From a virus (Duplodnaviria > Heunggongvirae > Uroviricota > Caudoviricetes), in IMG/VR virus record IMGVR_UViG_3300035208_004239, positions 259,611 to 323,610 of that record: a stretch of 64,000 bases of DNA, one strand, 5' to 3'. The notes below the pieces were generated by a model. The model did not search any database. It worked only from the letters and a program-made list of their open reading frames with translations, and was not told where the DNA came from. Shown one piece after another: positions 19,492 to 35,112 of the stretch (position 1 is its first letter; each line of letters opens with the position of its first letter). The translations under genes and the position numbers were made by a program.

Positions 19492-20297
19492 ATCTATTAG
19501 TCTGTATTTATAGAAAAAAGTTAAAAATTATGTTATTCAGTATAAATAAATTTTCGTTGGGTTTGTTGAAAGATACTCTTTCATATGCATCCATCCAAAA
19601 AGATAATGACGCATTTGAATTAATTCAAAACATTAAATTAAATATTAATGATATTATTCAGGTTGATTTTCCTGATAATCAATATTATAAAGAACAAACA
19701 AATAAAAACCAAATAGTTTTACATCATACTGTTTCTGGACAAGGTGTTGATGGGGATATTGCATATTGGAGAAGTACGGTAGAAAGAATCGGAACAGCAA
19801 TTATTGTTGGTTGGGATGGTAAAATATATCAATGTTTCAGTACTAAATATTGGGCACATCATTTAGGAACACATGCCGTAAATAATGTTGCTTTAAATAA
19901 AGCGAGTATTGGAATTGAAATTGATGCTTGGGGTGGTTTAATAAAAAAAGATAATCTATGGTATCCGGCAAAATGGGATGTAATTAAAAAGAAAAATATT
20001 CCCAACACAAAAGTTAAACCAATTCAGAATGTTCAGGAATATCCTAAAGGATTTATGGGATATTATGGTTTTGAAAAATATACTGATGCACAAATTGAAT
20101 CGGTAAGAAAATTATTAGTGTTTTGGAATGAAAAATATAATATTCCTCTTGATTATCATCCTGAAATGTGGAATATTTCTATAAAAGCATTGGGAGGTGT
20201 TCCGGGTATTTGGACACATGTTAGTTACAGGGGAAATGGAAAATCTGATTGTCATCCCGATGAAGGATTGATCAAAATGTTAAAATCGTTAAAATAA
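19476..20297 (+). CDS. N-acetylmuramoyl-L-alanine amidase (T7 lysozyme/PGRP, amidase_2 family) endolysin
   Basis: VLHHTVSGQG, IGTAIIVGWDGKIYQ, NKASIGIEIDAWGG and C-terminal KSDCHPDEG align to T7 lysozyme H17/Y46/H122/K128/C130 region; true start probably internal Met about 19530. Confidence 0.65.
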   Translation: MILFFYLLVCIYRKKLKIMLFSINKFSLGLLKDTLSYASIQKDNDAFELIQNIKLNINDIIQVDFPDNQYYKEQTNKNQIVLHHTVSGQGVDGDIAYWRSTVERIGTAIIVGWDGKIYQCFSTKYWAHHLGTHAVNNVALNKASIGIEIDAWGGLIKKDNLWYPAKWDVIKKKNIPNTKVKPIQNVQEYPKGFMGYYGFEKYTDAQIESVRKLLVFWNEKYNIPLDYHPEMWNISIKALGGVPGIWTHVSYRGNGKSDCHPDEGLIKMLKSLK

Positions 20298-30350: not shown

Positions 30351-30841
30351 AAAAATTTAGTTAATATTTTGTGTTTAATACCACTTTGTTTAATACCTTC
30401 ATTTGAACGTGGTGTTATAATAAAATTATCTGGAATCCAAGTAGATAAATCAAGATCGTCAATAGCAACATATTGACATATGTCAATATGTTCATTAATG
30501 TATTGTAATATCTCCATTGAACGACATTCTTCTAATTCTTGTAAACTAAAATATTTGATACCCCATAAATTAGGGGTCTTATCAAATATTTTAGTTTTAA
30601 CACCATTTATTTCAAAGATACGGTTTAAAATATCGAGAGTATAATCCTCTTTCCAATCACTGGATAAAACTATACGTAAATCACTAATTTTTTCAATAAT
30701 TTGATTAAAAACATTTACGCATTTTTCATCAAACCTATAACGATTATATTCAGAATTCCATTTCTTTCTATTAGTGTAATATTGCATTGTTGTTGCTAAT
30801 ACACCGTCAATATCAAGAAATATATAATTATATTGTTTCAT
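30347..30841 (-). CDS. HAD-superfamily hydrolase-like protein
   Basis: N-terminal motif I FLDIDGVLATT (DxDGV). Confidence 0.45.
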   Translation of the reverse strand: MKQYNYIFLDIDGVLATTMQYYTNRKKWNSEYNRYRFDEKCVNVFNQIIEKISDLRIVLSSDWKEDYTLDILNRIFEINGVKTKIFDKTPNLWGIKYFSLQELEECRSMEILQYINEHIDICQYVAIDDLDLSTWIPDNFIITPRSNEGIKQSGIKHKILTKFL

Positions 30842-31194
30842 TCATGTTGAATATCAAATGTGTTTCTGATTGCTTCAATAAGTGCATTTTTTGGAACTGC
30901 ACCGACACCCATTGCTGGTGTTCCTGTAAGTGGAATGAATAAAAGTGCAGGAATGCTTCTAATTTGAAACGCTGAACTAATTTCAATTTCACTATCAATA
31001 TCCACTTTATAAAAATCCACATCTGGAAATTCTTGACTAAGTTCTTCCAGTATTGGAGTAACCATTTTACAAGGAGAACACCAATCGGCATAAAAATCAA
31101 TAATTGTTGGTTTAGTTCCTTCAAATTTCCAATCTTTGTTTTTTTCAAAATTAAAAATCTTAACTTTAAATGTTTCTGTTGTTAAGTTTTCCAT
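30838..31194 (-). CDS. trx: thioredoxin
   Basis: FYADWCSPCKMVTPILEELSQEF active-site (WCxPCK); likely start is Met of MENLTTETFKV, upstream Met of the ORF track overlaps the terminator hairpin. Confidence 0.75.
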   Translation of the reverse strand: MENLTTETFKVKIFNFEKNKDWKFEGTKPTIIDFYADWCSPCKMVTPILEELSQEFPDVDFYKVDIDSEIEISSAFQIRSIPALLFIPLTGTPAMGVGAVPKNALIEAIRNTFDIQHE

Positions 31195-31260
31195 ATATTT
31201 AAATAAAATTAATTGAATATTGTGACCAAATGTAATATAATTTATTTTAATAAACAAAAA

Positions 31261-31283
31261 AGGGGATGAAAAAATCATCCCCT
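31261..31283. terminator. rho-independent terminator after SPFH gene
   Basis: 9-bp stem aggggatga/tcatcccct, loop aaaaa; T-runs on both strands. Confidence 0.6.
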
Positions 31284-31303
31284 TTTATATAATTTATACA
31301 TAT

Positions 31304-32339
31304 TTAATTGTTTGGTAAGCTTAAAATTACCCCTTGACCGTTACCCATCATGTAAGTAGGAAGTTTACCATCCCATTTATTGATCCATTCAAGTTGTATA
31401 ATCTTAGGATTTGCTGCAACTGAAGTACCTTTAATTTGTAAAGATTTTGCTTCACCCATTGCTTGTTCAATGGCAATATTTTTATTAATTTCTGCTTGTT
31501 TAAGTTTTTCTTCCTGTTGTCTTGTTACTTCAACAAGTCTTAAAACTTCTTGTTCGGCAAGTTTTTTAGCATCAATTGCTTTTTCAAAATCACTATTATA
31601 ATAAACTTCTCGAACATCTACCTGATCAATAATAAGTTTATATCCTTTAACTTCTACTTTCTTTAACTTCTACTTTCATTCTTTTAATGACTTCATCTTG
31701 AATTTCTTGACGTTTTGTGCTATAAACTTCAATAGGATTATAATTACTTACTGTTAATGCAAGTGCTGATTTTAATTTAGTTCGAATAATATTATCTTCT
31801 AACCAAATATATCTACCAGTATTTCCACCATCATTTTCAGTAACATTTTGATAAATCCACGAAGCTTCATCCGGAATAATTTTCCAAGATACTGATACGT
31901 CTAATCCCATTTTAATACCATCTTTTGTTGGTGACCAAATAGCATCGGCATTAGGTTTTGCTCCTTCTTGCTGTGCATTTGCACAAGTGTAAACCCAAAC
32001 TGTTTTATCCATCATATGAACATCACACCAAGGCATAACAATATGCCAACCAGTATGAAGTTCCATTTCGGATACTCCTTTTGGTGTAACAAGAACACCT
32101 ACGTCTTGAGGACCTACTTTAGTAATCATACTAAATAAAGCACCCATAATAAAACCCACAATCATTGCAGGTAATGCTAAAGGTAATTCTATTTTTACCT
32201 TTTCAGTTATCGTTTTTGCTCGACCCATACCATCTTTTTCACCAGTTGGTACTTCTTTATCAATAAAGAATAATCGTAAAACTAAACCAACTAAACCATA
32301 AAGAAATAAAATCCAAAATAAAAAACTAAAAAACCACAT
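31304..32339 (-). pseudogene. SPFH/band-7 (HflK/C-stomatin-prohibitin) family membrane protein, frameshifted by a 16-bp tandem duplication
   Basis: N-terminal ORF 31647-32339 (TM anchor + SPFH core) ends MKVEVKESRS*; removing one copy of tttaacttctactttc restores frame into ...GYKLIIDQVDVREVYYNSDFEKAIDAKKLAEQEVLRL...GQGVILSLPNN* (typical SPFH C-terminus) ending at 31304. Confidence 0.6.
31646..31677. repeat. perfect 16-bp tandem duplication (tttaacttctactttc x2) inside SPFH gene
   Basis: Read directly: 31646-31661 and 31662-31677 identical. Confidence 0.9.
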
Positions 32340-32500
32340 ATTATTAGGTATTTAATGATGCTTACTCTAAAGGTTTTCAGCTTCCCCGTTTTATATTATT
32401 TATTAAATATTGTATCAAGTTCATCCCATAATTCAATAAGTAAATATTGATCAATTTTATCTTTATACCACATCAATGCTTGTTGAAATATTGGTTTACG

Positions 32501-32944
32501 TTATAAGTATTCTTTTTTGTATTTACAATACATTGAATCATTATGTTCATAACTATATGTCGCATTTGCAAGAATATCACACATTTTAAGAATAATTGCA
32601 CGATAATCAGCAACAGTCTTAACCATAGTTAATAAATGTTTCATAAGACGATTTGATGATGGTACATCAGTGACAGCTAATACAATATCAGCAATATCTT
32701 TATTAGTATTTTCTAATATGTTATTATAGGATTGTCGAGCATCTTCAATACTATCATGAAAAAGTGATGCAATTTTTGTGTTAATAAAATCATCATTATT
32801 ATGTATAAAAACATTTTGATATCTATCTATTATTGCAGATACTGCATCTATGTGATAGATATATTCTTTATTATCGTATTTAGAATTAACCTCGTTATAT
32901 TGTTTACGAGCAATTTCATGTAATTTTTCATAATTTAAAATCAT
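32501..32944 (-). CDS. HD-domain phosphohydrolase (YfbR-like 5'-deoxynucleotidase / dNTPase family)
   Basis: YHIDAV ... LFHDSIED ... D pattern (H..HD..D); 147 aa. Confidence 0.45.
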   Translation of the reverse strand: MILNYEKLHEIARKQYNEVNSKYDNKEYIYHIDAVSAIIDRYQNVFIHNNDDFINTKIASLFHDSIEDARQSYNNILENTNKDIADIVLAVTDVPSSNRLMKHLLTMVKTVADYRAIILKMCDILANATYSYEHNDSMYCKYKKEYL

Positions 32945-33751: not shown

Positions 33752-34273
33752 TTGAAAATATTAGATATATTTGCCACAATTAATCATAAATTAATGAAAA
33801 TAATAGAAGCAAATTGGATAGCATTTCATTATGTTACCCGAAGTAATACTACTTGTAAAAATGCAATGGAATTAATCAAGAAATGGAAACTTGAAGATCA
33901 ATATATTAAATTTTATTATGTTACTCGTGCTTATCAAACTCGTCATGGTAATGGATATATAACCAATGAAGGTCTTGATATATCATATATTAAAGAAAAT
34001 CCAGATGAAACAAATACCGATCATGGTATGCAAGGTAAGTTCAGAAAAACTGTATTAGATTTAGACTTACTTAAATATGCTATTTCTTGTAATGAATATC
34101 ATGGTCAGAAACGTGATTATGAAATAGTAATGACTTGTCTTGATCAAGTACCAACAAAAATTCCGGTAACTATTAACGGAGAATTGATTAAGCTTGATAC
34201 TAATCAAATTGCAGAACATTTTGGTTTATTTCATCTTATCGAATGTCATTCAGATAAGGGTTTTGAGATATAA
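33752..34273 (+). CDS. adenylosuccinate synthetase (PurA/PurZ)-like protein, C-terminal part only; 5'-truncated and active-site-divergent
   Basis: FHYVTRSNTT ~ PurA YPYVTSSNTT; AYQTRHGNGYITNE ~ AYSTRVGAGPFPTE; TDHGMQGKFRKTVLDLDLL ~ TTGRRRRTGWLDTVAV; VMTCLDQV ~ CLTKLDVL. No P-loop (GDEGKGK) half anywhere upstream. Confidence 0.5.
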   Translation: MKILDIFATINHKLMKIIEANWIAFHYVTRSNTTCKNAMELIKKWKLEDQYIKFYYVTRAYQTRHGNGYITNEGLDISYIKENPDETNTDHGMQGKFRKTVLDLDLLKYAISCNEYHGQKRDYEIVMTCLDQVPTKIPVTINGELIKLDTNQIAEHFGLFHLIECHSDKGFEI

Positions 34274-34286
34274 TAAAAAACCTTTA

Positions 34287-34326
34287 TATTATTAATTTTT
34301 CATATATATTATTAATTTTTCATATA
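34287..34326. repeat. perfect 20-bp tandem duplication (tattattaatttttcatata x2) in intergenic/promoter region
   Basis: Read directly. Confidence 0.9.
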
Positions 34327-34359: not shown

Positions 34360-35112
34360 ATGAAGTTTTTAATTCAAAAAATAAACGGGAAAATTACTCA
34401 TGATTTTTCTTTTACATTATTAAAATCAATTGAATATCAAAATTGGTTGCACCGGGATTCCTTCATTAAGTTTAAATATTTCAATACTATTTGTCCGGAT
34501 GGTGAAAATTTTAAATATTTTGAATTTAATTCTTCTCATAAAAATTATGTGCCTGTTGGTAGTGTAGAATTTGTAATAGTATTTTTAGAAAAATTCTATG
34601 GGCTTACACCAAAACCACTTAATGTTCCCGAAGAACTTTTTGATCCATATTATTCTTCTCGTCCAATTTTTAATGAAAATAATACGAGTTTGAAAATATA
34701 TAATGATTTTAAATGGTTTGTTAAAAGTAATGATAAAATAAAGGGGTTTTCAGAAATTATTAAACTATCAAAACCATATTCAATTCCAGAAGGTAATTAT
34801 CAAATTTCAGAATATATTAATATTTATAGTGAATGGCGTGCGTTTATATATAATGGAAAATTAGTTGGATTACAAAATTATTCTGCCGAATTCACTAAAT
34901 TTCCAGACATTAATAAAATTCATGCTATGATAAAAGCATATAAATCAGCACCAGTAGCATATACTTTGGATGTAGGTATTGATGGTTCAAATAATACATT
35001 TGTAATTGAATGTCATGATTTCTTTTCCTGTGGATTATATGGATTTGCAGATCATAGAATATATCCACAAATGTTATATAAATGGTTTAAGAATTATATA
35101 AATAAAAAATAA
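34360..35112 (+). CDS. ATP-grasp-fold-like protein
   Basis: C-terminal YSEWRAFIYNGKLVGLQNY ... AYTLDVGIDGSNNTFVIECHDF resembles ATP-grasp core (E-x-N end motif). Confidence 0.35.
   Translation: MKFLIQKINGKITHDFSFTLLKSIEYQNWLHRDSFIKFKYFNTICPDGENFKYFEFNSSHKNYVPVGSVEFVIVFLEKFYGLTPKPLNVPEELFDPYYSSRPIFNENNTSLKIYNDFKWFVKSNDKIKGFSEIIKLSKPYSIPEGNYQISEYINIYSEWRAFIYNGKLVGLQNYSAEFTKFPDINKIHAMIKAYKSAPVAYTLDVGIDGSNNTFVIECHDFFSCGLYGFADHRIYPQMLYKWFKNYINKK

Follow-up and report, generated by a model that had tools for sequence, protein, structure and literature searches.

SPFH-domain proteins occur in RaK2-like and other jumbo phages, where their function has been described as poorly understood (PMC7760394, PMC6034870). 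By tblastn, the phage SPFH family phrog_200 has homologues in 729 phage records, including Staphylococcus, Pseudomonas, Erwinia and Bacillus phages. Outside the phages, many of the listed relatives of the gene described here are 'prohibitin family proteins' of Bacteroidota genomes, at 63-73% identity.

This gene lies in a window of 64,000 nucleotides (the whole stretch of DNA that was analysed, positions 259,611 to 323,610 of the IMG/VR record IMGVR_UViG_3300035208_004239), and its reading frame is broken by a perfect tandem duplication of 16 nt. When one repeat unit is removed, the restored protein matches phrog_200 over residues 1-331 (E 1.7e-53). The best phage match, with 55% identity, is found in LR756501, a 735-kb uncultured huge phage; the cultured-phage SPFH members are only about 27% identical and, among the matches listed, cover up to 96% of the query. 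The Bacteroidota prohibitin-family proteins (for instance P0019 on CP065006.1 and P0108 from Saprospiraceae) are like the restored protein at the identities given above and have a similar length, and their strongly conserved C-terminal motifs are shared with it; their genes have no NfeD partner. However, the Bacteroidota genes are intact and chromosomal, whereas the copy in the window is phage-borne and frameshifted. We regard the lesion as very probably a genuine mutation, recent in evolutionary terms, by which an accessory gene of an uncultivated huge (jumbo) phage lost its function.

A frameshifting tandem duplication in an SPFH gene

Tandem Repeats Finder detects a period-16 repeat within the gene (2.1 copies, 100% matches, no indels, score 66; Table 1). 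The repeat unit, TTTAACTTCTACTTTC, is present at two positions only within the 64-kb window, 31646 and 31662, and in the sense of the gene the repeat reads GAAAGTAGAAGTTAAA GAAAGTAGAAGTTAAA G. The repetition at period 16 extends over 33 nt as read from the sequence, leaving a microhomology of only 1 nt at the duplication boundary. A perfect tandem duplication with a period of at least 16 appeared in just one of 400 order-3 Markov simulations of the window, and this result, together with a gap at the same place in the comparative alignment (see below), leads us to reject a chance origin of the repeat.

The minus strand across the repeat reads AAAAGA ATG AAA GTA GAA GTT AAA GAA AGT AGA AGT TAA AGG ATA TAA. 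With 16 nt added, reading moves into the +1 frame, where five aberrant codons (E-S-R-S-stop) follow, the last being a TAA within the second repeat copy; the resulting minus-strand ORF encodes 230 amino acids and has the C-terminus MKVEVKESRS. Deletion of one unit yields 1020 nt, a multiple of three, encoding a 339-aa protein that reads MKVEVKGYKLIIDQVDVREVYYNSDFEKAIDAKKLAEQEVLRL across the former break and stops at 31304. Loss of a single unit would thus restore the gene, and hence the lesion is formally reversible. Beginning 18 nt 3' of the restored stop codon is a hairpin, AAAAGGGGATGA-TTTTT-TCATCCCCTTTT followed by a T run, with a 12-bp stem that includes five GC pairs; the scan found four terminator-like sites in the 1.5-kb region against 0.5 expected. 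The sequence-only reading, which had described an SPFH/Band_7 gene split by a frameshifting 16-nt duplication and originally extending to 31304 just 5' of a terminator, was accurate in its coordinates and its statements on the repeat, the stop, the restored frame and the hairpin. Repeat detection, frame restoration, the Pfam match and the alignment of relatives all agree with it.

Table 1. Features of the disrupted SPFH gene; positions are those of the window
Feature	Position	Strand	Basis or remark
Disrupted SPFH/prohibitin-family gene, whole	31304..32339	-	1036 nt as found; 1020 nt (339 aa) after removal of one unit
5' ORF, truncated 230-aa product ending in KESRS	31647..32339	-	ORF list; partial Band_7 match
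Tandem duplication, two 16-nt units plus 1 matching base	31645..31677		Tandem Repeats Finder; gap in L003, L001 and L002
In-frame TAA created by the duplication	31649-31647	-	Sequence
Out-of-frame 3' remnant, 113 codons plus stop	31304..31645	-	Open frame; homology; model
Intrinsic-terminator-like hairpin	31258..31286	-	Terminator scan

The restored protein matches the Pfam Band_7 domain (PF01145) with residues 74-272, aligned to profile positions 2-175 of 176 (E 1.5e-27; 97.2 bits, above the gathering cut-off of 23.6), while the 230-aa ORF reaches 63.8 bits and covers profile positions 2-131 only. The short product keeps two hydrophobic helices at its N-terminus and roughly three quarters of the SPFH domain. 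The hydrophobic segments have their centres at residues 10-19 and at 57 and 59-68 (Kyte-Doolittle, 19-residue windows, >1.6), and they precede the SPFH domain as do the membrane anchors of the SPFH superfamily. NCBIfam offers no named family for the protein. The break falls inside the Band_7 domain and is therefore not a boundary between two genes. Moreover, the sole start codon in the downstream frame yields a tail fragment of 51 aa, and the possibility that two genuine genes meet here is rejected, as no relative has a gene boundary at this point.

An AF2 model of the restored protein, built from an alignment of 37 sequences and of moderate confidence (mean pLDDT 72.7), consists of helices at residues 2-21 and 55-71, the SPFH alpha/beta domain with its last strand at 230-242, and a long helix at 244-304. 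The break lies at residue 226/227, in front of both this last strand and the long helix, so that the remnant encodes the last SPFH beta-strand, the long helix (about 60 residues) and a C-terminal tail that is conserved. The best Foldseek matches of the model are prohibitin, HflK/C, erlin, stomatin, flotillin and QmcA (E 1e-15 to 1e-9, probability 1.00), and the nearest solved structures by sequence are human prohibitin-2, matched over residues 181-315, and prohibitin-1. The long C-terminal helix and the fold of a cage member are present in the restored sequence only, and are out of frame in the gene as found. In SPFH complexes with solved structures the long C-terminal helices make the wall of a ring or cage. 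Lacking the last SPFH strand and this helix, the truncated 230-aa product should be unable to form such a scaffold. Loss of function thus seems the probable outcome, judging from distant solved structures (14-19% identity to the solved chains) and the moderate-confidence model, but some activity could be left to the membrane-anchored fragment or be newly acquired by it.

Relatives, genomic setting and age of the lesion

A search of 5.8 billion clustered proteins returned 839 homologues. The 119 others listed, which are the best of the 839, are 286-366 aa long (mostly 317-343 aa) and cover 73-100% of the restored protein; none of them ends at the break. Homologues that end naturally at this point, with a separate downstream gene, had been suggested as a possible ground for discarding the split-gene interpretation, and no such case exists among these 119. 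The only other short family member seen is P0125, with 231 aa, encoded on a contig of 1,096 bp. The nearest listed relative, P0001, is 76% identical over the whole protein and is located on a 357-kb viral contig (L003, IMGVR_UViG_3300037067_018912, 357,275 bp). Another listed homologue, P0121 (346 aa), corresponds to MFA5366368.1, 'MAG: prohibitin family protein [Dehalococcoidia bacterium]', and may stem from a huge-phage genome binned into a bacterial MAG if it lies on the same contig as P0001.

Comparison with related phage genomes, proposed in the sequence-only reading, gave a uniform picture. Three related huge-phage loci (L003, L001 and L002; 65-76% amino acid identity) have a single unit at the site, with a clean 16-column gap opposite the duplication and no repeat in the alignment at this place. 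The gap falls exactly at the second unit, and the duplication is therefore a lineage-specific insertion. L003, the closest relative, has similar DNA and size-matched ORFs in a conserved order, apart from two additional ORFs that follow its SPFH gene. A megablast search of positions 30800-32900 against GenBank phages gave no match.

The part of the gene downstream of the duplication has kept the features of a coding sequence. Its original frame is open throughout, with many stops in the other two; 103 of 112 residues (92%) are identical to P0001, a higher value than the 76% for the whole protein; every column downstream of residue 226 that is invariant in the 37-sequence alignment is retained; and the terminator still follows the restored stop codon. 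Decay of the remnant has not yet begun, and the lesion is hence very recent. The locus hence combines a break in a conserved domain, full-length orthologues and homology continuing in another frame, as is characteristic of recent frameshift pseudogenes. Of the three possibilities raised in the sequence-only reading (a fresh duplication making a pseudogene, a phase-variable switch and an assembly artefact), the first fits the undecayed remnant, the intact relatives and the two-copy contigs described below.

The window has a GC content of 25.9% and contains genes for phage replication proteins, among them a Dda-like helicase, an ATP-dependent DNA ligase and SbcCD-like nucleases. Related IMG/VR contigs are 299-357 kb long and the contig of the truncated product measures 327,244 bp; the source is a huge (jumbo) phage, and its host is probably a member of Bacteroidota. 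The SPFH gene is situated between a gene for a small HD-domain phosphohydrolase and one for thioredoxin, with a HAD_SAK_2 gene following. No NfeD partner was found adjacent to it, the neighbours being the HD_4 phosphohydrolase, thioredoxin, HAD_SAK_2 and unknowns. A link between SPFH proteins of mobile elements and membrane-associated defence or exclusion modules had also been proposed, but it finds no support here: PADLOC assigned no defence family to the restored SPFH protein or to six neighbouring proteins, and the nearest cellular homologues stand alone in ordinary Bacteroidota chromosomal neighbourhoods without NfeD or defence genes.

Two of the neighbouring genes deserve a comment of their own. 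The HD-domain protein immediately upstream of the SPFH gene (147 aa, 32501-32944, minus strand) has weak matches to the hydrolase part of RelA/SpoT (TIGR00691, E 1e-7), to Pfam HD_4 and to phrog_990, a metal-dependent phosphohydrolase family, and it may act as a small alarmone (ppGpp) hydrolase of the phage. The thioredoxin ORF (30838-31278, minus strand, 146 aa as called) starts within the SPFH terminator hairpin, and a later ATG at MENLTTETF (about 31194) is a more plausible start.

The same strain in other assemblies, and an adjoining deletion

The 230-aa product (P0014) is also encoded on an ENA MEGAHIT k141 contig of 188,756 bp and on Logan contigs of two SRA runs, SRR6484787 and SRR18595299. 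All three retrieved contigs match the window at 100% identity over 4-12 kb, and each contains both repeat units; in addition, the protein index lists the truncated product on the 327,244-bp contig, which is from JGI. At the level of assemblies, the two-copy allele is hence the sole form of this strain retrieved, though a minority one-copy allele may exist in the population. In a collection of 15 billion proteins the 51-aa remnant ORF is present, and the exact one-copy product of 339 aa is absent. Exact-pattern scans of JGI metagenome contigs and IMG/VR for one or two units gave no matches, and the window's own sequence is also absent there. A literature search with the run and assembly accessions gave no papers. 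The assemblies may come from the same or closely related samples; they show the allele to be real in the reads, but its fixation in independent populations does not follow from them.

A stretch of 3,927 bp in the ENA contig (L025:4583-8509), which is otherwise 100% identical, is missing from the window. The junction, at window 33830|33831, is 1.5 kb from the SPFH gene and has no microhomology. The deletion removed the first 229 codons of the adenylosuccinate synthetase gene purA and a GIY-YIG/NUMOD3 homing-endonuclease gene, as well as four small genes (304, 50, 60 and 295 aa) and the greater part of a 99-aa gene. It leaves an in-frame fusion ORF (33752-34273, plus strand) in which 26 codons of the 99-aa gene lead into the last 147 residues of PurA. 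In the undeleted allele the GIY-YIG/NUMOD3 gene (L025:5263-5994) overlaps the start of purA, and in L003 there is no ORF of this size between the purA-like ORF and the next gene. A connection between cutting by the homing endonuclease and the nearby deletion would be pure speculation.

In SRR6484787 the Logan contig extends 30 nt beyond the deletion junction and stops there. We take Logan assemblies to use k = 31, in which case 30 nt equals k-1. A contig end at this distance would reflect a branch in the assembly graph and thus the presence of both alleles in one read set, which suggests that both deletion alleles coexist in that run. The Logan contigs of both runs also end at window position 19914 (computed), and one of them has an end at 32602. 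No 31-mer is repeated within the window near 19914, and these ends may represent additional polymorphisms, or repeats in other parts of the 327-kb genome.

A second perfect tandem duplication, TATATTATTAATTTTTCATA in two copies of 20 nt with three further matching bases, is found at 34285-34324. It is intergenic, between the purA remnant and an R2K-domain gene (34360-35112), and could be a duplicated promoter element. The ENA contig shares it, and it was not found in L001-L003. With the 3.9-kb deletion and this 20-nt duplication close by, the SPFH lesion sits in an accessory region that is visibly changing in this population. The recent age of the lesion and its position beside a deletion segregating in the same strain suggest that the SPFH gene is dispensable, at least in this population.

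Alternative readings and comparison with known systems

In the reading that we prefer, a 16-nt segment of the prohibitin-type SPFH gene would have been duplicated in tandem, probably by replication slippage or by template switching, with only 1 nt of microhomology to assist. The added 16 nt move the ribosome into the +1 frame, translation ends five codons on, and the 230-aa product, with its anchor and most of the SPFH domain but no long helix, would not build the oligomeric SPFH scaffold.

A reversible on/off switch is very unlikely, and nothing points to a programmed one. This reading supposes that the phage population is a mixture of one-copy genomes with SPFH on and two-copy genomes with SPFH off, as in contingency loci. 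Slipped-strand misalignment is familiar from the Streisinger model and from the T4 rII duplications, and perfect tandem duplications are known to be intrinsically unstable and able to revert precisely. The undecayed remnant is what would be expected of a gene that is regularly turned back on, and a second perfect tandem duplication (two copies of 20 nt) lies 2.6 kb off. However, a recent mutation explains the undecayed remnant equally well, and high switching rates go with tracts of many short repeats, whereas the present repeat has only two units of 16 nt. The repeat is not conserved either, being absent from the site in L001-L003. Moreover, the one-copy product is missing from the 15 billion proteins, the three retrieved contigs are all two-copy, and the contigs cross the duplication without a break in the graph, yet break at the neighbouring deletion polymorphism.

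In a broader version of the same idea, which seems to us very unlikely, the duplication is one state of a duplication/deletion toggle; with the 20-nt duplication and the 3.9-kb deletion it would mark a huge-phage population whose accessory genes for host interaction stay switchable. If it were true, SPFH would be off in a sub-population in which its expression is costly, for instance by interference with the host's near-identical prohibitin-family protein.

It is just as doubtful that useful expression persists, either by +1 ribosomal frameshifting at AGU-UAA-A or through a functional 230-aa protein that acts, for instance, as a dominant-negative on the host's prohibitin-family protein. Skipping the U at the stop would bring back the downstream frame and give a full-length protein with an insertion of five residues (ESRSK). 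However, the site is absent from L001-L003 and no conserved signal accompanies it, the AGU peptidyl-tRNA re-pairs poorly on GUU, and no stimulatory element was identified; because the site is unconserved and re-pairing is poor, programmed frameshifting is judged improbable. As for the short protein, the host-type homologues are 63-73% identical, and a truncated copy could conceivably co-assemble with them and poison the complex, but no other family member is seen to be cut at this point, P0125 being the only other short one. Recoding of the stop codon is irrelevant, as readthrough of the TAA leaves the frame unrestored.

A sequencing or assembly artefact, with a true genome that has one unit and an intact gene, is the least credible reading and is effectively excluded. 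All instances of the allele are 100% identical, and one sample or library could be their source; neither the one-copy nor the two-copy sequence occurs in the searchable JGI or IMG/VR contig collections. Yet the same allele was obtained by different assemblers (MEGAHIT k141 and Logan) and from two SRA runs. Within 31600-31720 every 21-, 30- and 31-mer is unique, and a de Bruijn graph thus has no cycle at the site from which a second copy could be invented, and the 29 private 31-mers that define the two-copy allele must come from reads. With the second copy present in the reads, an assembly artefact is very unlikely, and to our knowledge short-read chemistry does not generate duplications of 16 nt.

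As a recent loss-of-function mutation, the lesion is an ordinary kind of event in a gene family already known in phages, and it opens no new biological question. For annotation, it means that the two ORFs of 230 and 51 aa in the JGI and ENA gene calls belong to a single broken gene, which is best labelled a pseudogene. It also provides an example of accessory-gene decay in huge phages, with a recent lesion, a pristine downstream part and a segregating 3.9-kb deletion next to it.

The restored protein has the same predicted arrangement of anchor, SPFH domain and long helix as the cage-forming SPFH complexes (prohibitin PHB1/2, 8rrh; HflK/C-FtsH, 7vhq and 7wi3; stomatin, erlin, flotillin and QmcA-YbbJ), but it is only 12-19% identical to the solved cage chains and has two predicted N-terminal hydrophobic helices instead of one. 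Partners of SPFH proteins include NfeD, encoded in the same operon (QmcA-YbbJ, stomatin-NfeD), and FtsH-type proteases; no such partner gene is adjacent here. In contingency loci, units of 1-7 nt are repeated many times, and the loci are conserved from strain to strain; the locus in the window, in contrast, has two copies of a 16-nt unit and is unique to this strain. The closest likeness in the lesion itself is to frameshift pseudogenes formed by short tandem duplication, with which it shares the head-to-tail arrangement, a length that is not a multiple of three, the premature stop and, in principle, precise reversibility.
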